This document shows positions 13,271 to 63,833 of a DNA stretch of 64,000 nt, one piece after another. The notes under the pieces were generated by a model that saw only the letters and a program-made list of their open reading frames with translations, did no database searches and was not told the origin of the DNA. Where the stretch lies: IMG/VR virus record IMGVR_UViG_3300018475_000095; one strand, 5' to 3'. Both the position numbers and the translations under genes were made by a program. The stretch comes from a virus (lineage: Duplodnaviria > Heunggongvirae > Uroviricota > Caudoviricetes). Position 1 is the first letter of the stretch. Each line of letters starts with the position of its first letter.

Positions 13271-14740
13271 TTATTCTCGGTTAAAATCTAAATCTATCAC
13301 TAAATGCCCATTTTCATATCCTGATCTTGATCTTACTTCTAGGGCAAGAGTAAATGGTTGATCGAATCTAGAACTGTCTATTAAAGCATTAATAGCTCTT
13401 TTTATTTCTTTTATAAACATTTCTGAATCTTCAGTTGTAAACTCTCCTTGAGTTATCCAAGTAAATTCGATAACATCATCACTTGTAACTTCACTATCCC
13501 ACATTTTAAATCTCATATTATCTGGGATATTAGATTCATTTATCTTTGTTTCTGCGAATGGAGGATATGGATCACCTCTAAAACGCGGACTATTTACTCT
13601 AATCATATTAGCAAACATTTTTAAATCTTCTTCAGAATAATCATTTTCATCTAATGTTTCAGGATCAAGTTCATCTTCAAATAATTTAGATTCTAAAAAT
13701 TTATTTAGATCTTCTACTTTATTTTCTTGCAACAATGCGACTATTTGTTTTTTATCCTCATTTGTTAACTTACAAGCTTCATACATATTAACTAAATCGG
13801 TTTCGCAAGTATCCATATCAATCTTATTTAATTCTTCTCTGATATTCATCTTTGATTCAACTCCCCTATTAATATATTCTCTTGGTTCGTAGTTGTACAG
13901 CCTACCACCAACATATGTAAATAATTTAGGTCCTTCATCTTTCGTTGTTATAATTAAATGCGAGTTATCAAAGGTTTTTTCATCTATAACTTCTTCTACT
14001 CTAATTATATCAGAATAGTTAAAATAACCAGCCCTTACTATATCATCAACAATGCCTGATAAATTATCTATTATATCTTCTTTTGATTCTTCTTTATTAT
14101 TTGAAGTTAATTCAATTCCTTTATATTCTATGCTTTCACTCATAGCTGTGCTAGATGTACTTGTTTCACTAGATCCCATATTTTTATTAAATGTTGCTAT
14201 CCCTTTTTCTACATTACCAGCGTTCAACTTAACAAATGCTCCTAATCCTTTTTGATGCTTTTTAGCAAATTCTTCTGCATCTTTTAAAGGATTTTTTGAT
14301 TCATTTTCTAATAATTTCATTTCTCTTATCACTCCACATGCTATCTTATCTCCAGCATCACCTGCTGGTTGACTTGTAAAATCATCTCTCTGTGAATGCA
14401 ATATAATTGCTTTTCCAATGATTTCATCGACTGTAAATCTATCTGTTTCTTGTTCTATATGAACTTTTCCGGTTGATGTATTTATAGAAGATAAATCACC
14501 TTTATGATTTGGATGTCTTTTTCTATCTGGATTGTAATGCTTACCTACATCTTTAAATTCATCTTGCTCATCTCCTGAGCAATTACCTTTAGCATGTATA
14601 TGAAATCCTAAGAAAGTTGATTTTGGTAATCCTTTTATATCAGCTGTAATTTTTACTTTATCGTCCAACTGGGTAAATTTAACTTCTCCACTTATATCTG
14701 GATGTTTACTATTACCATATATTCTAGCTATTGCATTCAT
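13271..14740 (-). CDS. sodC: Cu/Zn superoxide dismutase domain fused to a ~340-aa C-terminal extension
   Basis: GFHIHAKGNC, HYNP, HKGDL and DKIACGVI match the SodC metal-binding and signature motifs. Confidence 0.8.
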   Translation of the reverse strand: MNAIARIYGNSKHPDISGEVKFTQLDDKVKITADIKGLPKSTFLGFHIHAKGNCSGDEQDEFKDVGKHYNPDRKRHPNHKGDLSSINTSTGKVHIEQETDRFTVDEIIGKAIILHSQRDDFTSQPAGDAGDKIACGVIREMKLLENESKNPLKDAEEFAKKHQKGLGAFVKLNAGNVEKGIATFNKNMGSSETSTSSTAMSESIEYKGIELTSNNKEESKEDIIDNLSGIVDDIVRAGYFNYSDIIRVEEVIDEKTFDNSHLIITTKDEGPKLFTYVGGRLYNYEPREYINRGVESKMNIREELNKIDMDTCETDLVNMYEACKLTNEDKKQIVALLQENKVEDLNKFLESKLFEDELDPETLDENDYSEEDLKMFANMIRVNSPRFRGDPYPPFAETKINESNIPDNMRFKMWDSEVTSDDVIEFTWITQGEFTTEDSEMFIKEIKRAINALIDSSRFDQPFTLALEVRSRSGYENGHLVIDLDFNRE

Positions 14741-27946: not shown

Positions 27947-29272
27947 TTAATACATTGATATATCAGTCTTATCTTCTCTTATCCACTTGAATACAGGAAA
28001 CCTTAATCCAAAAGTACCTTGTTGATTGGCTGATATTTCAAAATATTGTATTTCAATTATTTTATTTAAAATTTTATCTGGGTTATCCCAATAATACTCT
28101 CTATCCTCATCAGTCAAACCCGAACCTACATCATTTTGATAAGTAAACCCATCAGGACCAATAAATTCAATCTTTAATGCTCCAAGTTTACCTTTATTTT
28201 TTCCTGTACCTTCTTCCATACCAACAACTTTAACATCGCAGGTTTGCATTTTCTTAACTTTAAGTAAGCCTTTGCTTCTTTTACATTCATAAGGGGCATC
28301 TGCAATATTAATCATGACACCCTCACCTCCAGCAGCTGTTATAATATCTAATTGTTCAGTAATAACCTGTTTATCATCACCATAATATAAGATAGGAACG
28401 TCAACTATATGAGGTAATTTCATAAAAGTAAATTGTTTTAATAATTGCTCTTTTCTTAAAGATGCAGGCGCATTACAATAACCATTTTGAAAATCTGTAA
28501 TTGGAATCATGTCAAAAACATTGAATATAAGATTAGTTTTTTCTTTATCTGCACTAGTAACTTTTACAGTTGCCCTATATAAATCTTTACTCTCTAAATT
28601 ATCTTTGTTATCTAACAGTAGTTCACCATCATATACATAACCCATAGGTAACTGTTTTGCTTCTTCTTCAAGTTCTATCAATTGCTCTATTAACTGACCT
28701 TGTCTGGAAAAGAATTTTGCACCTGAAAAACCATCGTTAATTAAAACACATCTGACACCATCTAACTTTGGAGTCAAAATAAATTGAATCCCTTCTGGAA
28801 CAAGTTTATCTGGATTGTCAAAATATTTTTGTGCTAACATCACGTCGAAGCAAGGTATAAAATTATCACCCCAAATTTTATTTATAGTTGTTGATTGAAT
28901 ACCCAATTTAATATCTTTAGAAACTATTTTTAATATAAGTTCAGAATAATCTTTATTAGACATAGCACATTTTAAGACTTCAATTAAAGTTGAATCTGAA
29001 CCAGTGTTATTCAACTTAACATAATTAAGTAAGTCAAATATATCATAAGTTTCTGGTATATCTTCTTTACTTATAAATGAAGATTTAATTCTATCTATTT
29101 TCTTTTTTGAGATACCTGTGACAATATAGGGGTTGAATATAAAATGAACTATTTGTTTTACATATTCATTTTCTTTATATTTATCTAACACAGCTTCTTT
29201 ATATAATCTAGAATTACTAGAGTTAATTTCATTTACAAATTCTTCAAATACTTTTAAAACCATTTTATTCAA
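27947..29272 (-). CDS. ATP-dependent DNA ligase
   Basis: TPKLDGVRC (motif I, KxDGxR), EGVMIN (motif IV) and LLKVKK (motif V). Confidence 0.85.
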   Translation of the reverse strand: MNKMVLKVFEEFVNEINSSNSRLYKEAVLDKYKENEYVKQIVHFIFNPYIVTGISKKKIDRIKSSFISKEDIPETYDIFDLLNYVKLNNTGSDSTLIEVLKCAMSNKDYSELILKIVSKDIKLGIQSTTINKIWGDNFIPCFDVMLAQKYFDNPDKLVPEGIQFILTPKLDGVRCVLINDGFSGAKFFSRQGQLIEQLIELEEEAKQLPMGYVYDGELLLDNKDNLESKDLYRATVKVTSADKEKTNLIFNVFDMIPITDFQNGYCNAPASLRKEQLLKQFTFMKLPHIVDVPILYYGDDKQVITEQLDIITAAGGEGVMINIADAPYECKRSKGLLKVKKMQTCDVKVVGMEEGTGKNKGKLGALKIEFIGPDGFTYQNDVGSGLTDEDREYYWDNPDKILNKIIEIQYFEISANQQGTFGLRFPVFKWIREDKTDISMY

Positions 29273-34821: not shown

Positions 34822-35232
34822 TTATTTTAAAGCATCCATAGCTTCATTTGCTAATTTATCTGCCCTGTTATTAAATTCATTATCTGAGTGTCCTTTTACT
34901 TTTATGAATCTAATATCTTTAAATTTATTTATATATGTATACAGTTCTTCCCATAAATCTAAATTAGCTTTTTTATTCCAATTTAAATTAATTGTACTAA
35001 CTACATATTGGCTATCTGAATATACTTCAATAGGAATATCATATACTTTTAATGCTTTTAACCCTTCTATCACAGATAAAATTTCCATTTTATTATTAGT
35101 TGTATTTCGAAAAGCATTTTTTAGTTCTTTATATTGATCTTGGTACTGAAGCACTATCCCATAACCACCTATGTTTTCTGCAAATTGATTTCCTCTACAA
35201 GCACCATCAGCATATATCTTAATTTTCTCCAT
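34822..35232 (-). CDS. rnhA: ribonuclease HI
   Basis: YADGACRGN, MEILSVIEGL, SDSQYV and KGHSDNEFNNRADKLA match RNase H catalytic blocks. Confidence 0.85.
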   Translation of the reverse strand: MEKIKIYADGACRGNQFAENIGGYGIVLQYQDQYKELKNAFRNTTNNKMEILSVIEGLKALKVYDIPIEVYSDSQYVVSTINLNWNKKANLDLWEELYTYINKFKDIRFIKVKGHSDNEFNNRADKLANEAMDALK

Positions 35233-36490
35233 TTAAGTATCTCCTTGTAATTTCAGATAAAGTTTCTATTGTGTTTAGTTGGGAATTCTCCATAACTTTG
35301 CCTAATAAGAAATTAAGAACCTTACCTATCTTCTCACCACTTATATCAAATGTAGATTGAAGAAAGTGCCCATCTATTGCCAAGTCTTGTAATCTATATG
35401 GTTGACTTGTAATTTCTGACAAATCTATTCCTTCTATTTTTGTGTAAATACCCAAATACTTGCATACGTATGCATGTTCAAATTTATTGAATAGTTGCTT
35501 GATTGTTAGGACAATATCTTGTTGCTGAACATCTTCCATAAACTTTGACATCTTATAATAGCTAATAACCTCTTTGATTTGTTGGTTACTATATTTATAT
35601 AACCTCATCCAAATTTCTGCATCTATCATTGACTTATACTTATTCAATATTGAATACAACTTTAACATAGGTGGGTTGTCATTATCTATATCTATGATGA
35701 CCTGGTTACTACCCCATTTACTTACTTTGTTTTGAGGTATCTCAAATATCTCTGCTAGTGTTTCTATTGTTGAATTTAAAGTTTCAGAATTACCTTTTGA
35801 ATATTCTAATATCTTCTTAACTTCTTCAGTAATTCTTTCTTTTGATACATTCTTTAAGAGACTACCAGTACCCGCTATAACATTGCTTGTTGCATTCTCT
35901 AACTCAAAATTATACTTACAAGCAAATCTAATGCCCCTTAAAATTCTCAAAGCATCTTCTTTTATTCTAACCTGTGGGTCTCCTACTGCTTTAACTATTT
36001 TATTTTTAATATCTTCAACACCATTATGTGGGTCTACTATACCTACTAATGGGTTATAAGCAATAGCATTCATAGTAAAATCTCTTCTATCTAAATCATC
36101 TATAATAGATTCACCAAAAGTTACATTATTTGGTCTTCTACCATCAGTGTAATCGCTATCATATCTAAATGTGGTTATTTCATAAATACCTGCAAGATGT
36201 TCATATTTATTTAATTTATATTTTTCTATAACTTCAATAGTCATAGTGCCATATTTTTCTCCTGTTGGAATAACTTTAAAATAAATATCCATATCACTCT
36301 TGTGAAAACTATTATCTTCAAATAGTTTCTTTGTTTCAGCAGGTAAAGCACTTGTTGCTATATCCCAATCTTTTGGTTCAATACCTAATATAGAATCTCT
36401 AATAGCGCCACCAACTGCATATGCTGCATAACCATTTTCATTTAACATGTTTATTAGTAATTCAACATATTTTGGTAATTTTATCTCCAT
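35219..36490 (-). CDS. cca: tRNA nucleotidyltransferase (CCA-adding enzyme / poly(A) polymerase family)
   Basis: YAVGGAIRD...DWDIAT is the class II head-domain motif. Confidence 0.8.
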   Translation of the reverse strand: MEIKLPKYVELLINMLNENGYAAYAVGGAIRDSILGIEPKDWDIATSALPAETKKLFEDNSFHKSDMDIYFKVIPTGEKYGTMTIEVIEKYKLNKYEHLAGIYEITTFRYDSDYTDGRRPNNVTFGESIIDDLDRRDFTMNAIAYNPLVGIVDPHNGVEDIKNKIVKAVGDPQVRIKEDALRILRGIRFACKYNFELENATSNVIAGTGSLLKNVSKERITEEVKKILEYSKGNSETLNSTIETLAEIFEIPQNKVSKWGSNQVIIDIDNDNPPMLKLYSILNKYKSMIDAEIWMRLYKYSNQQIKEVISYYKMSKFMEDVQQQDIVLTIKQLFNKFEHAYVCKYLGIYTKIEGIDLSEITSQPYRLQDLAIDGHFLQSTFDISGEKIGKVLNFLLGKVMENSQLNTIETLSEITRRYLNGEN

Positions 36491-42498: not shown

Positions 42499-42831
42499 TT
42501 ATTCATTTGAAACAATCTCAATATGTTTCTCATTGTTAAACCAGTTAGTATTATATTTGCTTATAATAGAGATCTTAAATACAGAAATTGATCTCACAAA
42601 ATCTTGTAAATCTTTTTTATTACCGCAATATAAAGGGTCATTACCTGTTATTATAACTTGACAGATATCATTATTATTTATTTGTGATATTAATGTATTT
42701 TTAATATCTAAATACTTAAAATTCTTATTATCTTTTGGCGGTGACTTTCTGCATTGCTTGCAATTATTACTACATCCTGCTACATATACATAAGCTATAT
42801 CTTGTTTAAATTCTACTTTTTCTATAAACAT
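42499..42831 (-). CDS. second small NrdG-like radical-SAM activase-like protein
   Basis: GCSNNCKQC cluster and ITGNDPLY. Confidence 0.5.
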   Translation of the reverse strand: MFIEKVEFKQDIAYVYVAGCSNNCKQCRKSPPKDNKNFKYLDIKNTLISQINNNDICQVIITGNDPLYCGNKKDLQDFVRSISVFKISIISKYNTNWFNNEKHIEIVSNE

Positions 42832-42907: not shown

Positions 42908-43360
42908 TTAATTTAATCTTATTATTCTTTGATTGCTGGAACCTCTAAATGGTAATGTAATATCTCTTTTATCTTGTTCAAATTTCCCATCCACTAAAAC
43001 GTCTATGTAATTTAATACACCAAAGTTTTTCATGTCTTCATACAAATAACCAGTATATAACCAAATAGTTTTACTAGGAAATTTTTCTTTTATCTCTTTT
43101 GTTAGAGCTACAATTTCATCTCTGTTTCCTGGATAAAATGGATCCCCACCACTAAATGTAATCCCATCTATGTAATCTCTATCTAATAATTCAAATAATT
43201 TTTGTTTGGTTTGTTCTGTAAATAGTTTACCTCGTGTCTCGTCCCAACATTCTGGATTGTGACAGCCTTTGCAGTAGTGTGAACAGCCTGTAACAAATAA
43301 AACAACTCTGACACCTTCACCATCTGCAATAGAGCAATCTAAAATTTGTTGATATCTCAT
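42908..43360 (-). CDS. nrdG: anaerobic ribonucleotide reductase activating protein
   Basis: GCSHYCKGC radical-SAM cluster and FSGGDPF. Confidence 0.85.
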   Translation of the reverse strand: MRYQQILDCSIADGEGVRVVLFVTGCSHYCKGCHNPECWDETRGKLFTEQTKQKLFELLDRDYIDGITFSGGDPFYPGNRDEIVALTKEIKEKFPSKTIWLYTGYLYEDMKNFGVLNYIDVLVDGKFEQDKRDITLPFRGSSNQRIIRLN

Positions 43361-44016: not shown

Positions 44017-44493
44017 TCAAGAATATATAAAAGTAAAATTAAAGTAAAACATGTCTGCAATACAGTGTTCTAATCCTATAACTACAAAGATAATAACTCC
44101 AAAGAAAAGAGATAAAATACCTCTTATATCTTTGAACTTATTGTATCCTTCTACCGCTATATAAATTAATATGTTACATAAAATTCCGAGTATAAATAAA
44201 CTTATATAGGAATCACTTAATTTGATTTCACATATTGCATTTGCATACTCTATTAGATTAATTAACCGTGTAGCTCTACACATTAAAGCTAGTAATAATG
44301 TTCCTATAAAATTACCAAGTAAAGTTATAACTACTTCTAAATAATTTTTCTTTTCTATAACATAACAAATCTTACCTGTGAATAAATTTAATTTAAAAGT
44401 AAGTATAACAAATAATCCTACAGTAAATAAGAAAGCACCCACTATTTTATCAGGAGATGATAGATAGGCTAAACAGCCTATCCCTATAAACAT
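44017..44493 (-). CDS. polytopic membrane protein
   Basis: Four or five TM helices. Confidence 0.5.
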   Translation of the reverse strand: MFIGIGCLAYLSSPDKIVGAFLFTVGLFVILTFKLNLFTGKICYVIEKKNYLEVVITLLGNFIGTLLLALMCRATRLINLIEYANAICEIKLSDSYISLFILGILCNILIYIAVEGYNKFKDIRGILSLFFGVIIFVVIGLEHCIADMFYFNFTFIYS

Positions 44494-44530: not shown

Positions 44531-47500
44531 TTATTCAATAGGAACTCCTGTGTGTTTGACTCTATCTTCTACTTCCGCTATCTTACCTTCATTAAAATTA
44601 TGATAATCTGTAGAAACATATCCTGTAACTCTTCTTAATCTTTCAATATTATCTGAACCACATTCTGGACATTTATCATTCATTTCTTCTTGATGTCCGC
44701 AGTCCATACAAACATCATTTGGTACGTTTATAGCAAAGTAAGGTATATCTTTATCCATAGCATAATTAACTAATTTTTCAATAGCTTCTATATTATGAAT
44801 TGAAGATGAATCTAATTCTACATAAGTAATACACCCAGCTGAAGAATAACCTGTTAATTGACTTTCAATATCTATTTTATCAAAAGCATTTATGTTATGG
44901 TATACTGGAACATGCATTGAATTAGTAAAATATTTTCTATCAGATATATTTGGAATAATACCATATTTTTCTTTAAATTTAGTCATAGCAGTTTTACATA
45001 AAGATTCTGCAGGAGTATAATAAACACCAAAATTTAATTTATATTGTTCTTTAAAATAAGCACATTTATCTTTAAATAATTGTTCTATCTTTTTAGCAAG
45101 TTCCATACCTTCTTTTGTAGTATGGTCTTTTCCAATTAATATTTGTAAACATTCAGCAAGACCTAATTGACCTATAACTAATGTTCCATGTTTTAAAGCA
45201 CTCCTAATTCCTTCTTCTGGAATATAACCAGCCATTGTGTTATTTTCATACATAAATGGGGCTGATTTAGGTGATTGGCTACAGATATGCTCAAATCTTT
45301 CTATCAAAGAGTCTTTTGCTTCATTTATTTTACATTCAAGTAATCTCATAAATACATCTATATCTGATTCTTCTGAAGCTCTTGTACATTCTTTAGATTT
45401 CATTGCTATTGTTGGTAATATAATAGTAGTAGGTGCAATATTTCCTCTACCATCTTTTTGTTGTTTTAAACCATTAATATCCCAACCATTTGCAGTTCTA
45501 CAGTTATGCATTATAATATCTGAACCTATAAATGAACCAGTTTCAGTACCTATATCGTAGCTATCAACTGCTTCCCAATGCCAACATATATCAGTTATTT
45601 CTAACTCTAAATTATCAGCTCTATAAAGTTTATCACCTATTTTTAATTGATCTGCTCTTGTAAATTTATCTCCTGTCCATAGAGGGTGATCTTCAGTACA
45701 AGACAAACAATATTCTTTATCGTATTCTTTGTAATAGATATGCATCATATACGGAGTATTTAATTTATCATTTTTAAAGATATGTTTGATCTTTACCCAT
45801 TTATTATCTCTATCTAATACTTTAATATCAAATTCAGATAAATCAATCAATTCTTGTTTTTTACTCAAATCAACTTTAAATACAGGTCTATCATATACTC
45901 TATGCCTAGATTTTTGAGTAATTAACTTATAATATTTCTTATCTGTTCCTCTAGGATTTATATTTGCATTCTTTTGAATATAAAGGTTTTCAGCTTCTTT
46001 ATAATCTTCAGTTATTTCTAATACTTTAAATTCATAATTAGCTGTATCAATATCCCCAAAATTTATTCCTGCATCAATCCCACCTGTTTTGCCTATAGCA
46101 CATTTATGCTCAGCGCATCTTCTAGAAATAGAACTTGAACTTCCAATATATGTGACATCTTCTGGTAAATAAGTTATTGAATAAACACCTGGTAGATTAG
46201 GTAATCCAGATTTTTCTTGATAATGTCTACCTAAAGGCTCTTCATTTAATTTTTCTCTGTTATACCAAATCTGTGTTTTCTTATAATTTTGTAAATCATC
46301 TGTTTTACAATAATCAAATAAGTCTCTGATAGATAAGTCAATAGGTTCTTCATTTCCTATTTTAACTGTTAGATGTTCATGACCACTCAAAGCACCCATT
46401 GTACTAAAATATGTTTTTGGATCATTTACATCGTAACCTGCATTACCACTCCAATCAACTGAGGCATAATTTGGATACAATCTCTTTGAAGTTGATTTTA
46501 ATGCTAACTTAAATAAGTCATAATTTGGATCGCCCGGTTTTCTGTTAACACCTTTCATGCACTGGAATATACCACAAGGGAATATACTTGTTCTATGATA
46601 TTTTCCTAAACCTTCAATAGATACATTTAACAATTCTTCTGTTATCATTCTACCTTCTGGTAAAGTGCAAGTTCCATAATTTATAGAGCTAAATGGTAGT
46701 TGTTGTCCACTTCTTGATTGTAATGAATTTAAATTGTGATATAATGCTTCAACTGCTTGATGTGTTTCTTTTTCAGTTTGTCTCATAGCATATTCATAAG
46801 CATCTTGATTTAGTTTATATTTTTCGTCAATTATAGAAGTTTCTTTTGTAATTCCTTCTAAATACTTTTCATTACCGAACCAATATAATCCTTCTTTATA
46901 ATGTTTATAAAAACTCTTTCTTACATAAGGGACCATTGACCAATCAAAGTGAGTATATGATACACCACCAAATTGACATAAACTTTGTAATTGCATTATA
47001 ACAGCTGACAATTGCATCGCTGTATTTACTGTTCCAGCAGGTCTTATATCTGTCTGTTTAACTTTAAATCCTTTTGCTAATAAATCATCTAAAGGAATTG
47101 ATAAACAATTATGCATACCACTTGCATAAGCATCTAAATCATGTATATAAATTTCATTATTAATATGATTATTTCTAGTAGTTTCTGATACTAAATTATT
47201 AAGTGCATATTCTTTTAATATAGTTCCAAATGCTTCTTTCTCTCTTCCACTGAAAGTATTTTCATCTAGGTTTGCATTTGAATTTTCTACATTCTTTGCT
47301 TCTAGTTTAGCTTTAACTTTATTCATTAGTTCAGTATAACTATTTCTAGCTAGTTTATGTAATTGTCTATATTCTATGTATGCTTTTGCTTGTTCATATT
47401 TATTAGCTTCCATCAAAGTTAGTTCTACAATATCTTGAATTTGTTCTACAGTATAATTTTTTCTTTTATCTAATTGTTGTGTTACTTTATTTGTTAATTC

Positions 47501-47626
47501 TGTTATCACACCATCATTAACATACTCACCTTTAGGACAACAATCTTCAAAACAACCTAATATTGCTTTCCATATTTTATACTCATCAAATTTTTGCTTT
47601 GATCCATCTCGTTTTATAATTTGCAT
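44531..47626 (-). CDS. nrdD: anaerobic ribonucleoside-triphosphate reductase, interrupted by an intein-like insertion
   Basis: Class III RNR; C-terminal CMDCGHQ...CPECGS zinc ribbon plus glycyl-radical RVTGYVS. At 1031 aa it is far longer than typical NrdD. Confidence 0.9.
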   Translation of the reverse strand: MQIIKRDGSKQKFDEYKIWKAILGCFEDCCPKGEYVNDGVITELTNKVTQQLDKRKNYTVEQIQDIVELTLMEANKYEQAKAYIEYRQLHKLARNSYTELMNKVKAKLEAKNVENSNANLDENTFSGREKEAFGTILKEYALNNLVSETTRNNHINNEIYIHDLDAYASGMHNCLSIPLDDLLAKGFKVKQTDIRPAGTVNTAMQLSAVIMQLQSLCQFGGVSYTHFDWSMVPYVRKSFYKHYKEGLYWFGNEKYLEGITKETSIIDEKYKLNQDAYEYAMRQTEKETHQAVEALYHNLNSLQSRSGQQLPFSSINYGTCTLPEGRMITEELLNVSIEGLGKYHRTSIFPCGIFQCMKGVNRKPGDPNYDLFKLALKSTSKRLYPNYASVDWSGNAGYDVNDPKTYFSTMGALSGHEHLTVKIGNEEPIDLSIRDLFDYCKTDDLQNYKKTQIWYNREKLNEEPLGRHYQEKSGLPNLPGVYSITYLPEDVTYIGSSSSISRRCAEHKCAIGKTGGIDAGINFGDIDTANYEFKVLEITEDYKEAENLYIQKNANINPRGTDKKYYKLITQKSRHRVYDRPVFKVDLSKKQELIDLSEFDIKVLDRDNKWVKIKHIFKNDKLNTPYMMHIYYKEYDKEYCLSCTEDHPLWTGDKFTRADQLKIGDKLYRADNLELEITDICWHWEAVDSYDIGTETGSFIGSDIIMHNCRTANGWDINGLKQQKDGRGNIAPTTIILPTIAMKSKECTRASEESDIDVFMRLLECKINEAKDSLIERFEHICSQSPKSAPFMYENNTMAGYIPEEGIRSALKHGTLVIGQLGLAECLQILIGKDHTTKEGMELAKKIEQLFKDKCAYFKEQYKLNFGVYYTPAESLCKTAMTKFKEKYGIIPNISDRKYFTNSMHVPVYHNINAFDKIDIESQLTGYSSAGCITYVELDSSSIHNIEAIEKLVNYAMDKDIPYFAINVPNDVCMDCGHQEEMNDKCPECGSDNIERLRRVTGYVSTDYHNFNEGKIAEVEDRVKHTGVPIE
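45506..46396 (-). mobile_element. intein-like (Hint) element within nrdD carrying a GIY-YIG endonuclease domain
   Basis: Block-A-like ALSGHEHLTVKIG...IRDL, GIY-YIG core GVYSITYL...YIGSS...R...EH, block-B-like TEDHPLWT, and block F/G SYDIGTETGSFIGSDIIMHN followed by Cys. Confidence 0.55.
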
Positions 47627-57331: not shown

Positions 57332-57425
57332 CAGGGGTTGCAGGAATCGAACCCGCGCTATAGGTTTTGGAGACCTATTGTTACGGTTTTGAAGACCGCT
57401 TGACTTCCAATTATCGTACACCCCT
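57332..57425 (-). tRNA. tRNA-Trp-like opal suppressor, anticodon UCA, with a second CCA-anticodon-like hairpin in the variable region
   Basis: Hand-folded from AGGGGTG (A1:U72, G73). D-loop AATTGGAA. Anticodon arm GCGGT-CTTCAAA-ACCGT. A 26-nt variable arm contains ATAGGT-CTCCAAA-ACCTAT. T-arm GCGGG-TTCGATT-CCTGC. No encoded CCA. Confidence 0.6.
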
Positions 57426-57745
57426 ACATGGATAAGTTGTTTCTTGGCTGTCTTTCCGCAAGTGTCAAGATTCTTTTTGTTAAGATTACTCTAATTTATC
57501 ATTGGCTCACTTATCAAGAACCAAACGTTTGCTAGTGGAACGCTACACCCTATCACTCCGTTGGTATAGGACAACATGGTTTTAAAGCGACTTTTCCTTG
57601 TCGAAATTATTTACAAGACCTGAAAAAGATATTCTCCCAACGAATAGTTTTTTAAAATTGCTGTAAAGGTCTTATTTTTTACAAGACACAGTATAAAACG
57701 AATTTCAAGTTCCTTATGTAGAATTGCTGTATGTGTCTTATTATA

Positions 57746-59251
57746 TTATACAGTTTTTAATGTAATTTCTGCATATCTATCTTTAGTTATTTCTTTTAGC
57801 AATGCTATATATGGATCTATTTCATTTGATAAAACCATATTTACGACTGCTGGACTAAATCCTGATACTAAAGCTACCCCTAAATCATTTTGAATTACTG
57901 GGATTGTCTTTGTTCTTGAATTAACATTCCAGAAAGACATTTTAGGTAATTTATAACCTGCATTCTCATATCTTTGTCTTATAGCATCAAATAATTTAGC
58001 ATCTGGAGCAGTATGATCCCATCTATTAGTTCTTGTTGCGTTTGTTGTAGCACATTCATCAAATTCCATATCTGATATAATTAAAATATTTGGTATCTCT
58101 TCTTGAGACATATTATTTTTAACTGCTGTTTTTAATATTAAATCAAATACAGCTTCAATATTAGTATTAGCAACCTCTGCTTCTGCATAAGCTACATTTA
58201 ATTTATCTTTTAAATTATCATATTTTTCAAAAGAAACTAATCTTGGTTGATTCGAAAAAGTGATAAATTTATCTTTAAACTCACCTTTACATCTTTCTGC
58301 AAAATAAATAGATAATGCAGTTGCAACATCTAATGCAGATGTGCTAGTCTTTCCTACATTACAAGTCATCGAACCTGAACCATCTCTAACTACTATAGTT
58401 GAACTATCTCCTTGAACATAATCAGGTAAAGATTTCCATAATTCTTCTAATGTGATATCTTTATTTCTACAATTTCTATACTTGCAAACTATATCATGAG
58501 GGAATAGAGTTGAAGCATTTATTTTTGTCTCACCTTTTTCAAGTTTAGATAAATAATCTCTTCTTCTATCTTCATCATGTCTTAAAAATGCCCCCATATA
58601 TTTTATGTTAGCTTGAGATGGTACATTTTCATATTTTATCTCTTCCCATTTATTTGAAGAACATTTTCTTTCTAACACATCTAAATGGTTTCTTAAATCA
58701 GAAAGCATTTTTCTATAATCTTTTTCTGACATTCCTAAATAAGATTTAATTCTCCTTGCTTTTCGTTTTGTTTCGCTTGAAGATGTATTTATTGATGGCA
58801 TCCATTTAGCTAATAATGATATAGGCTCTTTATTAACAAGATTTTTAGCATCTTTTCTCAATTGGGTTTTTACGTATTCAAGCATTTGTTTTTCTAGTTT
58901 AGTACCAAAGAAAACAAATAAATCATCGTATCTACCAAATTCAACAATCCAATCAAATACTCTTTCATCTAATTCATCTATAATTTCAGTTACACATGTT
59001 CTAAATAGTCTTCTTTCTCCTAAACCTTCTCTTGCATCTCTAGCATAGAATAGGTATTTAAGAGCGAGTTCTTTGTTTTCAAACCATGCTTTTTTAAATT
59101 CTATCTCAATTTCTTCTTCACTTGAATCCCTAAATGAAGATATTTTAAAGTTAAAGTCTAATAATGCTTTACCAGTAGCAGCATACCCTTTTGCACCATT
59201 TTCTGTGGTTGAGGTATTTAATTCATTTTTTAATCCTTGTAAAAATGTCAT
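57746..59251 (-). CDS. vWA-domain protein with Ro60/TROVE-like architecture (helical N-domain plus MIDAS)
   Basis: VVRDGSGSM is a MIDAS motif, preceded by a roughly 280-aa helical region. Size and domain order resemble Ro60/Rsr. Confidence 0.6.
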   Translation of the reverse strand: MTFLQGLKNELNTSTTENGAKGYAATGKALLDFNFKISSFRDSSEEEIEIEFKKAWFENKELALKYLFYARDAREGLGERRLFRTCVTEIIDELDERVFDWIVEFGRYDDLFVFFGTKLEKQMLEYVKTQLRKDAKNLVNKEPISLLAKWMPSINTSSSETKRKARRIKSYLGMSEKDYRKMLSDLRNHLDVLERKCSSNKWEEIKYENVPSQANIKYMGAFLRHDEDRRRDYLSKLEKGETKINASTLFPHDIVCKYRNCRNKDITLEELWKSLPDYVQGDSSTIVVRDGSGSMTCNVGKTSTSALDVATALSIYFAERCKGEFKDKFITFSNQPRLVSFEKYDNLKDKLNVAYAEAEVANTNIEAVFDLILKTAVKNNMSQEEIPNILIISDMEFDECATTNATRTNRWDHTAPDAKLFDAIRQRYENAGYKLPKMSFWNVNSRTKTIPVIQNDLGVALVSGFSPAVVNMVLSNEIDPYIALLKEITKDRYAEITLKTV

Positions 59252-59421
59252 AACAAGATTCTCCTTTTTAATTTATTTGCTGTTAAAATCTTTTATTTGT
59301 TTTTATTCACATGAGATTATACCATAAAATTTCAGGCACATCTTATGCTCTCCTATAATAATATACAGTAATTCACCTGAAATTTAACATCTAAATATAT
59401 TTATTTTTAATATTATTTATT

Positions 59422-60162
59422 CTATTCTTTTATTTTTAACACATTTATTCTTTTTGAATAAGCGGTCATTGCATCTAATGCTATAATTCCAGCATCTTCA
59501 AATGGTTCAAAGCACTCATATTCACTGCCATATTTCTTGTGTAGATTAAAATGCCCATACCCTGAATGCCAATGACCACATACTATAGTTTTATCTTTTT
59601 CTCTTACCCTATCATTCCATGCTTTCATACCATTGACCCATCGAGCACATTCCCAGTGATAATCATTACTATTTCTCCAATCTGGATTATAATTCAAAAT
59701 AGCATTGCTTGTCTCATAAGGTTCAGTTGCTGTTGTAAATGAAGGTATCCAACCGTGTACTATAATATATTTATCAACTTCAAAATAATTTACACAATTC
59801 TTTTTTATGAATTTAAGTACTTTCTTTAAATATCTTTCGTCTTGTAACTGCATACATGTAGATATAGTTCCATTTGAATAGTGATATGAAGAAGCAGCAC
59901 CACCTGTAAAATTTAACTCCTTAACACATTCTTCTAACAAATCTTCATGATTACCTCTTACATATACAAATCTTTTCTTATTGTTTAACCATTGAACAAA
60001 TTTAAATAATTCTACAGCCTCATTACCTCTATCAAATAAATCACCCGCCACTACTAGTATATGGTCTGGATTTTTTAAATCAAATTTTTTCTTCTTTAAT
60101 TCTTTCTTAAGTATGGAATAAAAACCATGGACATCACTAACTACAAAATATGTTTTACTCAC
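59422..60162 (-). CDS. calcineurin-like metallophosphoesterase
   Basis: SDVHG, GDLFDRG and GNHE motifs. Confidence 0.7.
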   Translation of the reverse strand: MSKTYFVVSDVHGFYSILKKELKKKKFDLKNPDHILVVAGDLFDRGNEAVELFKFVQWLNNKKRFVYVRGNHEDLLEECVKELNFTGGAASSYHYSNGTISTCMQLQDERYLKKVLKFIKKNCVNYFEVDKYIIVHGWIPSFTTATEPYETSNAILNYNPDWRNSNDYHWECARWVNGMKAWNDRVREKDKTIVCGHWHSGYGHFNLHKKYGSEYECFEPFEDAGIIALDAMTAYSKRINVLKIKE

Positions 60163-60523
60163 CTTGATTCCTCACTTCTATAACTTGAATATATTCTAAT
60201 AGACTACTGTACACCCTATTATCGTTATCACTGCAATTAAGAAACCTTGATTCAATACACTCAACTAATTCTTGATATGCTTTCTTATAATTTAATTTAT
60301 CTTCTACTATCACATCAATATCTTCACTTAATAGTAACCCTATTACTATATAATCACAAGGATAACCTGTTGTATGAGAAATACATTCTATGTGAGCTTC
60401 TTCTTTATTTTCATAAATATATTGATAGGTGTAAGTATCATCTCCTTTCTTATGATACTTTATTTTGCTATTAGGTTTAATATGTAACATATTCATAACT
60501 TCAATTAAATAATGACTATTCAT
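60155..60523 (-). CDS. hypothetical protein
   Basis: 122-aa ORF. Confidence 0.5.
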   Translation of the reverse strand: MNSHYLIEVMNMLHIKPNSKIKYHKKGDDTYTYQYIYENKEEAHIECISHTTGYPCDYIVIGLLLSEDIDVIVEDKLNYKKAYQELVECIESRFLNCSDNDNRVYSSLLEYIQVIEVRNQGE

Positions 60524-60703
60524 AATCTCTCCTATGTTTTTGTTTTCTACTATATTTCTTTTTATTTTTATAAACTTTACTTGGGTTAGAAGAAATGATA
60601 TTTATAAAATTTTCATCTCTTATTTTGATAAAAGTTGATTTAATGGTTTTATCAGGAAATACCATAGTAAATTTTTTCTTCATATTATATTATACAGTAA
60701 AAA

Positions 60704-60780
60704 ATGGCGATCCGTAGCGGACTTCAACCGCTGACCTTCTGCGTGACAGGCAGACGTTCTAACCAACTGAACTAACGGAC
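60704..60780 (-). tRNA. tRNA-Asp (GUC)
   Basis: Cloverleaf by hand: acceptor GGTCCGT/ACGGATC, anticodon loop CTGTCAC, CCA encoded. Confidence 0.7.
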
Positions 60781-60989
60781 CATATACCCTAACTTTATAT
60801 ACCTTCAAATAAATGCGTTAGGAACATTGATATTATCTTTTAGCTGTCAAGACAAGTATTAAGAAGCTCCTTTATCTCCCAAGGAAAGGACAAGAGTTTT
60901 ATCTGTACTCTGAAATCAGACAGCCAAAACATCTGCTTTTAAAGTTAGGATTCATAACATTAGTTTTAAGTGCACATTCCTAACAGGCT

Positions 60990-61078
60990 TGGCGGGGAGT
61001 GAGGGATTCGAACCCCCGTGCCCTTACAGACAAATGGTTTTCAAGACCATCCCAGTACGACCGCTTTGGTAACTCTCC
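60990..61078 (-). tRNA. tRNA-Ser (UGA), type II
   Basis: Anticodon loop CTTGAAA, long variable arm, T-loop TTCGAAT, CCA encoded. Confidence 0.65.
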
Positions 61079-61081
61079 ACG

Positions 61082-61157
61082 TGGTAGCTCTAAGGAGATT
61101 CGAACTCCTGTTTGCACATTGAAAGCGTGCTGTCCTAGCCAATTAGACGATAGAGCC
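61082..61157 (-). tRNA. tRNA-Glu (UUC)
   Basis: Acceptor GGCTCTA/TAGAGCT with G1:U72, loop CTTTCAA, T-loop TTCGAAT, CCA. Confidence 0.7.
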
Positions 61158-61163
61158 ATATTT

Positions 61164-61254
61164 TGGCGGTAAGTATTAGATTCGAACTAATAGTAGAAAT
61201 TGCTTCCTACGGCAGTTTAGCAAACTGCTGGTTTAACCATTCACCCAACTTACC
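61164..61254 (-). tRNA. tRNA-Ser (GCU), type II
   Basis: Acceptor GGTAAGT/ACTTACC, loop TTGCTAA, long variable arm, CCA. Confidence 0.7.
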
Positions 61255-61257
61255 ACA

Positions 61258-61333
61258 TGGTGCCTGGACTTAGAATCGAACTAAGATGGGTGGATTTTCA
61301 GTCCACTGCCTTGACCAACTAGGCTATCCAGGC
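61258..61333 (-). tRNA. tRNA-Phe (GAA)
   Basis: Acceptor GCCTGGA/TCCAGGC, loop CTGAAAA, T-loop TTCGATT, CCA. Confidence 0.75.
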
Positions 61334-61336
61334 ATA

Positions 61337-61412
61337 TGGTAGGAGAGATAGGACTTGAACCTATAATCTTCTGTGTATCAGACAGAAACCTTAACCATTT
61401 GGCCACTCTCCT
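61337..61412 (-). tRNA. tRNA-Ile (GAU)
   Basis: Acceptor AGGAGAG/CTCTCCT, loop CTGATAC, CCA. Confidence 0.7.
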
Positions 61413-61416
61413 ATAT

Positions 61417-61490
61417 TGGAGCGACATGTCGGATTTGAACCGACGACAACTGCTTGGAAGGCAGGAATGTTACCACTACACCAATGTCGC
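61417..61490 (-). tRNA. tRNA-Gly (UCC)
   Basis: Acceptor GCGACAT/ATGTCGC, loop CTTCCAA, T-loop TTCAAAT, CCA. Confidence 0.7.
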
Positions 61491-61493
61491 ATT

Positions 61494-61567
61494 TGGCAGG
61501 CCCTGAAAGACTCGAACTTCCAACAATGGTTTTGGAGACCATAGTTTTACCTTTAAACTAAGGGCCT
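61494..61567 (-). tRNA. tRNA-Trp (CCA)
   Basis: Acceptor AGGCCCT/AGGGCCT (A1:U72, G73), D-stem GTTT/AAAC, anticodon arm ATGGT-CTCCAAA-ACCAT, CCA. Confidence 0.75.
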
Positions 61568-61684
61568 AAAATTTGTAACCACCTATTGAGTTACCACTAC
61601 GCCGCCGATGGTTACATTCTTATATCGTACTTGATTCTCACCTTAATGACTAACTCTCGCGTAATAAGGAATAGATATAAGAAA

Positions 61685-61758
61685 TGGCAGGCTCTGATAG
61701 AATCGAACTACCACCTACAGAGTCAAAGTCTGTTGTTCTACCTTTAAACTAAAAGCCT
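61685..61758 (-). tRNA. tRNA-Gln (UUG)
   Basis: Loop CTTTGAC, T-loop TTCGATT, CCA. Confidence 0.65.
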
Positions 61759-61761
61759 ATA

Positions 61762-61837
61762 TGGTGTTCCCACCTGGATTCGAACCAAGATTTAAGGTTT
61801 AGAAGACCCTTGTACTAATCCCTTATACTATGAGAAC
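61762..61837 (-). tRNA. tRNA-Arg (UCU)
   Basis: Loop CTTCTAA, T-arm CTTGG-TTCGAAT-CCAGG, CCA. Confidence 0.7.
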
Positions 61838-61840
61838 AAA

Positions 61841-61916
61841 TGGTTGCGGGGACTGGGCTCGAACCAGTGACCTTCGGATAATGAGTCCGACGAGATTCCA
61901 TCTTCTCCACCCCGCT
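61841..61916 (-). tRNA. tRNA-Met (CAU) with unpaired 1:72 (A.A), possibly initiator-type
   Basis: Loop CTCATTA, T-loop TTCGAGC, acceptor AGCGGGG/CCCCGCA, CCA. Confidence 0.6.
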
Positions 61917-62179
61917 ATATAAATGTCTATGTGGAGTCACCTCACTAACAATATAAGACTGATACGACTTGCTATTTTGGATTACAAGCTTTACCTGCAA
62001 CTTAACATATGATACATTCGCAATCGATTAAGCTCTTTATTCGAGACATATCTCTGGTACTTAATGAAACCACCTATCTTTTGACTATAAGTTGATAAGT
62101 ACTTATTTATACCATAGGATTTACACCTATACTTTCCCGTATCCATATCGGGCTGGTCTAATATTTAACCTAGATATAA

Positions 62180-62264
62180 TGGTGGGATGTTATGGACTCG
62201 AACCACCGAACTCCGAAGAGATGAGATTTACAGTCTCAGGTCATTGCCGCTAGACAAACATCCC
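62180..62264 (-). tRNA. tRNA-Tyr (GUA), type II
   Basis: Acceptor GGGATGT/ACATCCC, loop CTGTAAA, long variable arm, CCA. Confidence 0.65.
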
Positions 62265-62267
62265 ATG

Positions 62268-62795
62268 TGGTGGACCCTCAGGGACTCGAACCCCGGACCA
62301 ACCGGTTCATCATCGATTGAGCTTATTTTAAGGAAGAAAGAATCTTATCAGCTAAGTAATCTTGCGCCATATGTATTCCGAGCTCTTGTTTATTTTTTGG
62401 TTCAACTAATCTCAACGTAAATGTTCTTGTTTTAATTTCCTCTTTAGGCAAAAGATAACATTTTCCAGCGATCGCTGTACAGAAGAAATCAATTTCTGAA
62501 TCATCATAAAATTTTACTCTTTTGTTATTACCGGAAGTTAATTGAACATACAAGTATTCATCATTATTTTTTAACTTTCCGCTTTTACATTGGATACGAT
62601 ATAATTTATTTTTATAATCAATAATAAAATCATATCTAAGTGAACCAAAAGGAATTGATATTCCGCAACCTAAACTTTGTAAATAATGCATTGAAGCAAG
62701 CTCAGCGCAATTTCCTTTAACAGCACTCTCTTCCATATAATACCTCTTAATCTTCTTGATGAGCCGGTAGCTCTAACCAACTGAGCTAAGGGTCC
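62268..62795 (-). tRNA. tRNA (CAU anticodon, Met/Ile2-type) interrupted between nt 36 and 37 by a 451-bp insertion (62308-62758)
   Basis: 5' half is GGACCCT-TA-GCTC-AGTTGGTTA-GAGC-T-ACCGG-CTCAT (62795..62759). 3' half is AA-CCGGT...CGGGG-TTCGAGT-CCCTG-AGGGTCC-A-CCA (62307..62268). The halves pair as the acceptor and anticodon stems. Confidence 0.6.
62323..62736 (-). CDS. Hjc-like PD-(D/E)xK nuclease encoded inside a tRNA anticodon-loop insertion
   Basis: GNCAELASMHYLQSLGCGI...YDFIIDYKNKLYRIQCK parallels the archaeal Hjc GxxAE...G...D...E(V)K pattern, with Q in place of E. AAGAGG RBS. Confidence 0.55.
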   Translation of the reverse strand: MEESAVKGNCAELASMHYLQSLGCGISIPFGSLRYDFIIDYKNKLYRIQCKSGKLKNNDEYLYVQLTSGNNKRVKFYDDSEIDFFCTAIAGKCYLLPKEEIKTRTFTLRLVEPKNKQELGIHMAQDYLADKILSSLK

Positions 62796-63067
62796 ACGGT
62801 CTTGGACGTTACATTTTTATTTTATAGACCATCATCCAAGGCAGGTCTAATTGTGTTTGGGCAGTTCATCTAACTCCATTTAACTACAGCTGCTGTTTCC
62901 GCACCATTTCCCTTCGAGATTTTTACTGATTATATAATCACGATTTTAGGAGCAACATCTTGAAGTAATGTGTCCCTTGGCTTCGTAGCACCCATACACA
63001 AATTTCTAATTTAATATCAATATATTTTATGTACACTTAAATATATTCTCTAAGGTATTAGCACCTA

Positions 63068-63143
63068 TGGAGCTTCCAGTCCGAGTCGAACGGACAACCT
63101 ACTGATTACAAGTCAGTTGCGCTGCCAATTGCGCCATGGAAGC
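63068..63143 (-). tRNA. tRNA-Thr (UGU)
   Basis: Acceptor GCTTCCA/TGGAAGC, D GCGC/GCGC, loop CTTGTAA, CCA. Confidence 0.75.
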
Positions 63144-63145
63144 AT

Positions 63146-63221
63146 TGGTCCGAATGGAGGGACTCGAACCCCCGACCTCATGGTCCCAAACCACGCAGTC
63201 TACCAACTGACCTACATTCGG
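63146..63221 (-). tRNA. tRNA-Pro (UGG)
   Basis: C1:G72, loop TTTGGGA with G37, T-loop TTCGAGT, CCA. Confidence 0.7.
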
Positions 63222-63480
63222 ATAAAGTATATTTTATATAATATGATAGGTTGGTTTATTCAAATTATATAAACTCGATTTATCAATTATTATTATCAGT
63301 TTTATAGTGTAACATCAAATATACAAACTTCCCACTTTTGTGCACCTTTTTGTCTCGTCAAAATTCTAAAAACGTATGTACCCTACCGCTTTCTACATAA
63401 GGAACGGAGATTTTACTTTGAAACTCACAAAGTCATGTCGAACCCATCTGCATTTTTATCTAACCGTCGTTAGAGGGTTA

Positions 63481-63555
63481 TGGTTGCGAATACAGGACTC
63501 GAACCTATAACTTACTGCGTATGAAGCAGCCACTCTACCATTGAGTTAATTCGCA
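63481..63555 (-). tRNA. tRNA-Met/Ile2 (CAU)
   Basis: Acceptor TGCGAAT/ATTCGCA, loop TTCATAC, T-loop TTCGAGT, CCA. Confidence 0.65.
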
Positions 63556-63759
63556 TTGTGCGTTTAACCTTAACGCAAAAGGACACATTTGGGTTTTTAG
63601 TTATTCCCACGACAGACCCATTATTTGCTTGTTTAACTATCCTGGCTTAATAAGAAACTATTAACCACTGTGAACTACTCTATCTAATTAACTCACATAT
63701 TAATTAGAGTAAATACCTTTCTAATAGAACTTGGTATTATCGGATTTATTTCTTATTAA

Positions 63760-63833
63760 TGGCTCCCCGGGTCCGATTCGAACGGACGGCCTATCGGTTA
63801 ACAGCCGAGTGCTCCACCGCTGAGCTATTGAGG
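63760..63833 (-). tRNA. tRNA-Asn (GUU)-like gene with a non-complementary 3' acceptor strand (possible pseudo or chimeric tRNA)
   Basis: Positions 1-65 are canonical: GCCTCAA-TA-GCTC...loop CTGTTAA...GTCCG-TTCGAAT-CGGAC. Positions 66-72 read CCGGGGA, which cannot pair with GCCTCAA. Confidence 0.4.

Follow-up and report, generated by a model that had tools for sequence, protein, structure and literature searches.

In the 64,000-nt stretch of Caudoviricetes DNA analysed here (the window; IMG/VR record IMGVR_UViG_3300018475_000095), the anaerobic ribonucleotide reductase gene nrdD is interrupted in frame exactly at the catalytic cysteine of the enzyme, in the active-site loop (Met-Gly|Cys-Arg, the bar marking the insertion point). 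We consider it probable that the inserted element belongs to a family of mobile inteins specific to this NrdD site, splices by the class 2 route and homes by means of a GIY-YIG endonuclease. The anatomy, fold, residue conservation, insertion site and distribution among relatives could be established directly, and from them we infer splicing, its route and DNA cleavage.

The nrdD precursor ORF (44531..47626, minus strand) encodes 1031 aa, as the initial annotation had stated, and contains an ATP-cone (residues 1-91), an NRDD domain and a glycyl-radical domain (residues 911-1004) with the motif RVTGY, whose Gly1002 lies at 44621-44623 (minus strand). The NRDD match (PF13597, E 8.5e-145) falls into two stretches with a break at residues ~411/706, and the protein scores 477 bits against TIGR02487, well past the cut-off of 326. 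Active NrdD requires NrdG, a radical-SAM activase, and nrdG is found next to nrdD (42908..43360, minus strand; Fer4_12 E 1e-49, Radical_SAM E 2.8e-8), completing the set of features that define a class III ribonucleotide reductase. Because nrdG adjoins nrdD, and the identical NrdD protein occurs on 22 contigs (the longest 154.6 kb), we argue that the gene is in use. The nrdD genes of related phages are heavily fragmented by other elements; no group I intron was detected in these fragmented genes at Rfam gathering thresholds, and a permissive Rfam scan returned a single sub-threshold match, in phage TR-TP2.

The intein comprises 297 aa (ALSGHEHL...IIMHN), corresponding to NrdD residues 412-708 (45503..46393, minus strand), and runs from Ala1 (codon GCT) to His296-Asn297. 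An intein-like insert had been placed initially at residues 411-707 (45506..46396); the insert itself stands, and its exact limits move by one codon. The N-extein, residues 1-411, ends in ...DPKTYFSTMG (46394..47626, minus strand), and the C-extein, including the stop codon (44531..45502, minus strand), begins with Cys709 (45500-45502) of the conserved TMGCRT loop. Once residues 412-708 are removed, the N-extein aligns without gaps to the solved NrdD of P. copri (8p23), and the alignment continues ungapped across ...ATMGCRT.... The site is uninterrupted in 1017 of 1020 NrdD-bearing phage records. Splicing of the 118-kDa precursor is predicted to yield a 734-aa NrdD of 83.7 kDa and an intein of 34.7 kDa, in agreement with the earlier estimates of about 83 and 34 kDa; the predicted spliced-junction peptide is ...YFSTMGCRTANGW..., and the junction DNA of an intein-less nrdD is TATTTTAGTACAATGGGT|TGTAGAACTGCAAATGG.

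The Hint domain is divided between an N-terminal segment (intein residues 1-35; 46289..46393, minus strand), which contains block A (ALSGHEHLTVKIG), a strand and the helix IRDLFDYCKT, and a C-terminal segment (residues 181-297; 45503..45853, minus strand), which holds the invariant residues discussed below and matches the NrdJ-1 intein (8ubs) in a phmmer search. Within the latter are block B, TEDHP (45683-45697, minus strand), and blocks F/G, SYDIGTETGSFIGSDIIMHN (45503-45562, minus strand), followed by Cys. Every motif quoted in the initial annotation (block A through IRDL, the GIY-YIG core, TEDHPLWT, and F/G followed by Cys) could be located. A structure model built from 23 sequences, which replaced a poor 8-sequence model (pLDDT 62.6), gives the insert the Hint fold, with Hint strands on both flanks of the nuclease folding together; fold comparison also drew on the BFVD library. 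The best structural matches of the Hint part were PI-SceI, PI-PfuI and PI-PkoII, and the matches also included VidaL and the Cat atypical-split intein. The HMM check proposed earlier gave a divided result: the GIY-YIG domain was above the Pfam cut-off (28.4 bits against 22.6), whereas with the single sequence neither Pfam intein model reached its curated cut-off (18.6-21.5 bits against 35.8 for Intein_splicing, 18.5-20.5 against 27.7 for PT-HINT). A profile of the whole family, however, matched the NrdJ-1 intein among PDB sequences with E 6.8e-13 and the I-TevI catalytic domain with E 6.3e-7, and both the profile and the GIY-YIG matches are far above chance.

The nuclease domain occupies intein residues 67-147 (45953..46195, minus strand), with the core GVYSITYL...YIGSS...R...EH, and its residues Tyr71, Tyr82, Arg92, His96 and Glu135 align with Y6, Y17, R27, H31 and E75 of I-TevI, so that both fold and catalytic residues place it in the GIY-YIG superfamily. 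Only this catalytic part resembles TIGR01453 (27.9 bits against 56), and the nuclease segment alone gave nothing meaningful in a phmmer search of the PDB. As had been claimed, the nuclease lies between blocks A and B; residue alignment and structure model agree in putting it in the loop that follows the first helix of the Hint fold, about 35 residues into the intein, and the canonical site, the B-F loop, is empty and short, with 44 residues from His236 to Asp280. It is preceded by a variable, weakly conserved linker (residues 36-66; 46196..46288, minus strand; pLDDT 57-79) and followed by a basic linker (residues 148-180; 45854..45952, minus strand) with 11 Lys/Arg against 3 Asp/Glu, in which G149, Y155, K156, R169, P170 and Q180 are kept in close relatives. 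This 33-residue segment is a candidate for DNA contact; no zinc finger, NUMOD or helix-turn-helix module was matched in Pfam or NCBIfam.

Comparison with relatives bears on whether this nuclease still serves in homing. An intein copy that is 53% identical lies in the Walker A motif of a SNF2 helicase, at TMG|CGKS, where the DNA shares the core ACAATGGGN|TGT with the nrdD site. A close relative has an empty site (STMGCRT uninterrupted), its C-extein being about 88% identical overall and a second fragment 92%. Other members are mini versions without a nuclease (P0004-6) or carry a decayed one (P0017). Judged from their sequences, the helicase copy, the empty site and the mini and decayed forms may be taken as signs of mobility. 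It is nevertheless conceivable, though rather unlikely, that the GIY-YIG domain is a relic or has acquired some other role, such as DNA binding or aiding intein folding, and that the element spreads only vertically. The missing DNA-binding module would fit such a history, as would the dispensability of the domain in mini and decayed versions and the rarity of the family, with about 10 cluster representatives at E<1e-30 among 1.84 billion. However, the five catalytic residues do not vary among 10 close relatives and persist in distant ones, and Tyr, Tyr, Arg, His and Glu are preserved in 24 of the 25 copies in which the domain is still present and not obviously decayed. The element is also present in unrelated NrdD subfamilies and at the look-alike helicase site, and the empty site of a close relative likewise argues against purely vertical spread. 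In cultured phages, the sequences nearest to the nuclease part belong to GIY-YIG enzymes that are free-standing or intron-encoded. Searches by tblastn with the insert and with the intein of a distant relative against 50,697 phage records gave no intein match, only free-standing GIY-YIG genes, and a plasmid search had the same outcome. A putative nrdD intein has been described in Clostridium phage c-st (PMC3653736); this phage is in the searched collection yet did not match the NrdD intein family, so its intein must be a different element.

The residues expected of a splicing intein are present with one exception. Block B has its Thr-x-x-His (T233, H236), block F its Asp (D280), the C-terminus is His-Asn (H296, N297), and Cys709 supplies the +1 nucleophile. 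Over 27 copies that share 23-70% identity there is no variation in Thr-B7, His-B10, Asp-F4, His-G6 or Asn-G7, nor in the Cys at +1; the full invariant set, counted over 23-27 relatives in the same identity range, is T233, D235, H236, P237, D280, F288, H296 and N297, and +1 is Cys in all 19 extracted family members. The exception is position 1, where class 1 inteins have Cys, Ser or Thr and this one has Ala412. The initial annotation was correct about this Ala, which it called unusual; class 2 offers a precedent for it, and within the family 24 of 27 copies have Ala, two have Cys (P0014, P0016) and one has Ser (P0024), the Cys1 and Ser1 relatives occupying the same NrdD site. [quoted passage not shown] Two traits common to all class 2 members known in 2014, Ser at G6 and KlbA orthology, are lacking, as G6 is His296 and the host is NrdD. 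Class 3 splicing was considered and ruled out without its WCT signature (Trp B12, Cys F4, Thr G5, usually with Ser/Thr at +1): the corresponding residues are Leu238, Asp280 and Met295, with Cys at +1, and the Trp is at B13 rather than B12. The WCT signature is likewise absent from all copies in the family. The position of the +1 Cys in the conserved TMGCR loop, the class 2 precedent for Ala1 and the whole family of relatives are additions to the initial annotation.

The mechanism that we propose begins with the 1031-aa precursor, in which Hint segments 1-35 and 181-297 would form one horseshoe domain that draws both junctions close to each other. Since residue 1 is Ala, an N-terminal thioester is impossible, leaving direct attack by Cys709. 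In this class 2 route, Cys709 would attack the Gly411-Ala412 peptide bond, assisted by Thr233 and His236 of block B and Asp280 of block F; cyclisation of Asn297 and an S-to-N shift would then restore the native STMG-CRT loop in the 734-aa, 83.7-kDa NrdD, with Cys709 doubling as the residue needed in the active-site loop of the enzyme. The freed 34.7-kDa intein may cut intein-less nrdD alleles of co-infecting phages near ACAATGGGT|TGTAGAAC, and recombinational repair of the cut allele would copy the intein in.

Two other accounts of the splicing residues have to be weighed. One, which we regard as improbable, is that the intein is dead or decaying, so that the Ala1 copy does not splice and the 1031-aa NrdD is inactive and tolerated because nrdD is accessory. 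A Cys1-to-Ala change inactivates standard inteins (PMC4031507), the nrdD genes of related phages are broken up by other elements, and degenerate and mini copies do exist. However, the ORF runs unbroken through 1031 codons, the extein motifs are intact, as is the adjacent nrdG, and the sequence is identical on all 22 contigs. Moreover, Ala1 is found in most copies and the other splicing residues do not vary over 27 copies with identities as low as 23%, a conservation that drift would not keep. Slightly less probable again is splicing through an internal Cys near block B (Cys229 or Cys232, in CLSCTEDHP) that would be the first to accept the N-extein, the part played by the block F Cys in class 3 inteins. 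Close Ala1 relatives do have Cys before the block B Thr, and the two Cys1 copies have Ala there, but these two probably represent one lineage and therefore a single co-variation event. In the Hint fold, the residue preceding Thr-B7 in the strand would point away from the active site. An Ala1 relative (L005) has Val at this position, and the distant Ala1 copies, all but one, have Ile, Val, Met or Ala; these sequences break the co-variation, which is why an obligate block-B cysteine nucleophile was rejected.

The suggestion in the initial annotation that a free-standing GIY-YIG gene was simply fused in frame into nrdD, with no splicing domain around it, is scarcely credible for the present state, as the structure model and fold comparison show Hint strands that flank the nuclease and fold together; as history, it is probably right. 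The evidence for such a history is a naturally split relative (L013), whose break comes after 38 residues, just where the GIY-YIG domain is inserted in the NrdD intein, and in which the nuclease ORF begins exactly at the GIY motif (MIGIYKITH...) and overlaps the stop codon of the upstream ORF; the overlap falls at the position of the variable linker.

Inteins, GIY-YIG homing nucleases and phage reductase genes full of selfish elements are all well known, and the class 2 intein with in-frame GIY-YIG nuclease that we favour can be compared with several established systems. The only proven class 2 inteins, those of M. jannaschii KlbA and its orthologues, have Ser instead of His at G6, and all class 2 inteins known by 2014 were traced to one event (PMC4031507), so the NrdD intein would be a second lineage. 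In contrast to the KlbA inteins, it has His at G6, resides in a phage NrdD, carries a nuclease domain and has same-site relatives that start with Cys or Ser; KlbA was not among its best structural or sequence matches. Canonical endonuclease inteins (PI-SceI, PI-PfuI, PI-PkoII) likewise combine Hint and nuclease at a conserved site of a nucleotide-metabolism enzyme, but their LAGLIDADG or HNH nuclease is in the B-F loop, whereas here a GIY-YIG domain lies between A and B. I-TevI, I-BmoI and Seg-type enzymes share the catalytic fold and the Tyr, Tyr, Arg, His and Glu residues; those of the I-TevI type have a long modular DNA-binding domain and are intron-encoded or free-standing, whereas the NrdD nuclease is neither, being embedded in a splicing domain. 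In the fractured genes of Dassa et al. (2009) and AceL NrdHF, too, phage-type ribonucleotide reductase genes house a GIY-YIG homing nuclease gene together with a Hint domain, and NrdJ-1, the best PDB sequence match of the NrdD intein, is a fractured-gene intein. In these systems, however, a free-standing GIY-YIG or Vsr-like gene stands between halves at the canonical split (~100 + 40 aa), unlike the in-frame nuclease of a contiguous intein. Inteins that are naturally split close to the N-terminus have been documented (PMC10189870), and resemble the relative split after 38 residues, whereas the NrdD intein is contiguous.

The initial annotation was justified in calling the GIY-YIG payload unusual: a 2006 superfamily survey and Dassa et al. 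(2009) knew of no GIY-YIG domain inside inteins (PMC1564403, PMC2677866), a phrase search of the searchable intein literature was unmatched, and a 2025 survey of phage inteins had LAGLIDADG, HNH, Vsr-like and endonuclease VII-like nucleases in its dataset and no GIY-YIG. The combination of Ala1 with a GIY-YIG domain between A and B is not described in the searchable literature. Three aspects are absent from it: a contiguous intein that has GIY-YIG among its in-frame domains; a nuclease that lies behind the first Hint helix and not in the B-F loop, with a relative split at the same loop; and a sizeable Ala1 lineage that matches the class 2 signature and is unrelated to KlbA. The split at the nuclease loop suggests that insertion there could be an origin of atypically split inteins, which are tools for protein semisynthesis. 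We put forward only tentatively, as a minority possibility, the broader proposition that here, for the first time, a GIY-YIG homing nuclease lies in frame within a contiguous intein, that class 2 (Ala1) splicing arose independently a second time, and that the active-site-loop Cys is the sole nucleophile, making maturation redox-gated. If true, maturation of this oxygen-sensitive reductase would depend on a reduced thiol, and the intein would act as a built-in redox gate.

On this broader proposition, the intein and its Cys1 and Ser1, mini and split relatives at the same site would form a natural series in which to ask how a free-standing nuclease gene turns into an intein domain and how the first nucleophile is lost. 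Because Cys1 and Ser1 relatives occupy the same site, the evolution of nucleophile loss is directly testable through a few residue swaps. In practical terms, the family may be a source of further cis and split inteins, and perhaps of a compact GIY-YIG nuclease whose target is defined. For annotation there is a warning, as NrdD calls of about 1000 aa in gut-phage contigs can conceal such elements. The UniProt entry A0A8S5UCE7 is named only as a reductase.

The precursor ORF of nrdD in the window (44531..47626, minus strand) encodes a 1031-aa protein that Pfam and NCBIfam identify as a class III ribonucleotide reductase, NrdD, whose domains are an ATP-cone, NRDD and a glycyl-radical domain. The NRDD match is split into two stretches, with breaks at approximately residues 411 and 706, and NrdD residues 412-708 (window 45503..46393, minus strand) form a 297-aa insert, ALSGHEHL...IIMHN, preceded by ...YFSTMG and followed by CRTANG.... 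Removal of these 297 residues leaves an NrdD of 734 aa that aligns end to end with the solved Prevotella copri NrdD (8p23), with no gap at the junction (...fstmgcrtangwd... in the window with the insert removed, versus ...ATMGCRTRVFED... in 8p23). Phage records containing a homologous segment of NrdD numbered 1020, and in 1017 of these the same junction was uninterrupted. The initial annotation had described an NrdD interrupted by an intein-like element with a GIY-YIG domain; our results confirm the interruption and support that interpretation, and every motif it quoted was found in the insert. Its coordinates (45506-46396, residues 411-707) designated the right element, but were offset by one codon.

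On the single sequence, the GIY-YIG model reached 28.4 bits against a curated cut-off of 22.6 (insert residues 69-144), and the Pfam intein models stayed below their cut-offs (Intein_splicing, 18.6–21.5 versus 35.8 bits). The top PDB sequence match of the single insert sequence was the NrdJ-1 intein (E 0.0024), and a profile of 23 family members matched both the NrdJ-1 intein (E 6.8e-13) and the I-TevI catalytic domain (E 6.3e-7) among PDB sequences. Tyr71, Tyr82, Arg92, His96 and Glu135 of the window's nuclease, counted from NrdD Ala412 as intein residue 1, align with Tyr6, Tyr17, Arg27, His31 and Glu75 of I-TevI. Because alignments to inteins span up to 148 residues, and just 117 residues come after the nuclease, intein residues 1-35 (block A, one strand and a helix at 22-31) belong to the same Hint domain. 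A variable linker (residues 36-66) directly precedes the GIY-YIG nuclease (residues ~67-147), which interrupts the A-to-B interval of the fold at the loop that comes after its first helix and is followed by a strongly basic segment (residues 148-180; 11 Lys/Arg versus 3 Asp/Glu). The canonical endonuclease site, from block B His236 to block F Asp280, is empty, with just 44 residues. The best description of the element is an intein of class 2 signature whose in-frame GIY-YIG nuclease occupies a non-canonical position.

Class 3 inteins require Trp-B12, Cys-F4 and Thr-G5; class 2 inteins lack both an N-terminal nucleophile and the class 3 triplet, and their Thr-B7, His-B10 and Asp-F4 enable direct attack of Cys+1 on the N-terminal junction (PMC2807308, PMC4031507). 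The window's intein has Leu at B12, Asp at F4, Met at G5 and Cys at +1, which under these published definitions is a class 2 signature. Splicing would begin with direct attack of Cys709 on the Gly411-Ala412 bond, followed by cyclisation of Asn708 and an acyl shift that would restore the TMGCRT loop. Once free, the 34.7-kDa intein would serve as a homing nuclease of the GIY-YIG type directed at nrdD genes that lack the intein, with DNA contacts that would come from the basic linker, and perhaps from the Hint surface, in place of the absent I-TevI-type binding domain. Thr-B7, Asp, His-B10, Pro, Asp-F4, His-G6 and Asn-G7 are invariant in 27 copies, all with Cys at +1; 24 of these copies begin with Ala, two with Cys and one with Ser. 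A working nuclease is missing from two of the 27 (the domain is lost in P0004 and decayed in P0017), and the five nuclease residues are kept in 24 of the other 25, the exception being L009. We infer that the Ala1 copies are functional, an argument from selection: the catalytic residues of both modules are invariant down to 23% identity, mostly in Ala1 lineages, and the exteins and nrdG are intact. An internal Cys before block B was considered as an alternative nucleophile because it co-varies with Ala1 in close relatives, but this co-variation fails in the relative locus L005 and in distant Ala1 copies. As to the class 2 assignment, a 2014 review described every class 2 intein as an orthologue of KlbA that carries Ser at G6, and the class as having a single origin (PMC4031507), whereas the window's family has His at G6 and resides in another host protein.

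The family is small, and so far it has been found in metagenome assemblies only, the source of all named copies. A word-indexed search returned only nine relatives, and a profile scan run exhaustively over 1.84 billion representatives gave 326 matches with E<1e-3, of which 10 had E<1e-30. The close set (47–70% identical) carries the same element at Met-Gly/Cys-Arg in NrdD of several subfamilies, with members on three IMG/VR viral contigs (75–149 kb) and on two contigs that binning placed in genomes of Sphaerochaetaceae and Anaeromicropila, and in the distant set (23–29% identical, E 1e-14 to 1e-20) architecture and site are unchanged. One close-set member is UniProt entry A0A8S5UCE7 from a gut virome (BFVD; 1041 aa, Siphoviridae sp. 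ctgN495), whose intein shares 58% identity with the window's over 296 columns; its only name is 'Anaerobic ribonucleoside triphosphate reductase', so that a GIY-YIG intein is present in public databases yet unflagged. The window's exact NrdD protein occurs on 22 contigs, the longest of 154.6 kb, and the intein is absent from all cultured phages in a 50,697-record collection.

According to a phylogenomic survey of this nuclease superfamily from 2006, no GIY-YIG domain had been found in an intein up to then (PMC1564403). In the 2009 fractured-gene paper, all GIY-YIG genes found were free-standing and lay between the halves of split inteins, the type not being known within inteins (PMC2677866), and a 2020 paper reported that nrdHF can hold a class 3 intein that is split and has an intervening GIY-YIG gene (PMC7891396). 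Another intein paper lists GIY-YIG in its discussion among intein-associated nuclease types, on the authority of earlier papers; phrases such as 'GIY-YIG intein' had no match in the literature that could be searched. A putative nrdD intein has been reported for Clostridium phage c-st (PMC3653736), and this phage, within the searched phage collection, showed no similarity to the window's intein family.

Variants of the element are informative, in part as signs of mobility. Mini versions without the nuclease (P0004-6, P0037, P0044) still show traces of both linkers. Another copy, with 53% identity to the window's intein, lies in the Walker A motif of a SNF2-family helicase, at TMG/CGKS (L015:3001-5787; P0013, with a cluster of 34 members on contigs up to 87 kb); the DNA core ACAATGGGN/TGT of this site is common to the nrdD sites, and the copy resembles a product of ectopic homing to a look-alike site. 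The window's intein also has a naturally split counterpart at L013:3553-6767 (ENA ERZ27257204 k141_6881184), where ORF1 comprises the NrdD N-part and a 38-aa Hint N-fragment with Cys first, ending ...STMG/CARGDERITIKVDGVVYKNIRIDEAYKMIKEIAEEKENA-stop. The start of ORF2 overlaps the ORF1 stop (TAATG), and its first residues, MIGIYKITH..., indicate that it consists of the nuclease, the remaining Hint domain and the NrdD C-part. Natural inteins with a near-N-terminal split are on record (PMC10189870); in L013 the split point is also the place of a nuclease insertion. Four more proteins (P0018, P0029, P0031, P0035) begin at the GIY motif. Besides its GIY-YIG/Hint part at the Cys site, P0029 (884 aa) has a second, standard HNH-domain intein at TPAEGLC/...VHN/SGRF.

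In this phage group, selfish elements are concentrated in nrdD. Thomasclavelia phage TR-TP2 (PQ571310.1; L014:4233-5178) has an nrdD insert of ~0.95 kb with an HNH endonuclease ORF inside, located 4 nt upstream of the point where the intein sits; the flanking exon ends, ACC AT / G GGT TGT, rejoin to Thr-Met-Gly-Cys, and the insert matched a group I intron below threshold (27.9 bits, E 6.7e-5). This putative intron and the intein aim at almost one spot in nrdD. L016, a 142-kb contig from a relative of the window's phage, has STMGCRT uninterrupted; its C-extein is ~88% identical overall to the window's, and a second fragment is 92% identical. An HNH_3/NUMOD1 ORF fractures its nrdD (L016:3105-6098) at a point 13 codons upstream of where the intein would sit, and the ends of this ORF abut both nrdD fragments and so leave no space for a ribozyme. 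At three further loci (L001, L002, L004), nrdD is broken into three to five ORFs, interspersed with ORFs of HNH_3 or NUMOD type, with recurrent break points before LPFSSINYG and after YYTPAE, and Rfam detected no intron in these genes at the gathering threshold. The N-terminal nrdD ORF of L002 has 656 aa and may contain another insert.

The source is a large phage of ~155 kb with a low-G+C host. Gene orientation in the window is minus strand throughout. A hydrophobic ORF of 158 aa (44017-44493) lies between nrdD and nrdG (42908-43360), and the full nrdG is closely followed by a short, truncated NrdG-like ORF (42499-42831; 110 aa, Fer4_12 33.6 bits). L016 also has this nrdG pair; the gene between nrdD and nrdG differs there, being ART-PolyVal. 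Several long ORFs of the window (592, 750, 491 and 643 aa) had no Pfam match. A 489-aa Cu/Zn superoxide dismutase fusion (13271-14740) matches the enzyme over its first 138 residues (E 1.4e-31), the remaining 350 having no family match. The window also encodes an ATP-dependent DNA ligase (27947-29272), a CCA-adding enzyme (tRNA nucleotidyltransferase; 35219-36490) and a cluster of 17 tRNA genes (57332-63827), all of them on the minus strand. The closest cultured relatives of its nrdD are those of Thomasclavelia phages TR-TP1 and TR-TP2, with 77% nucleotide identity over ~620 bases.
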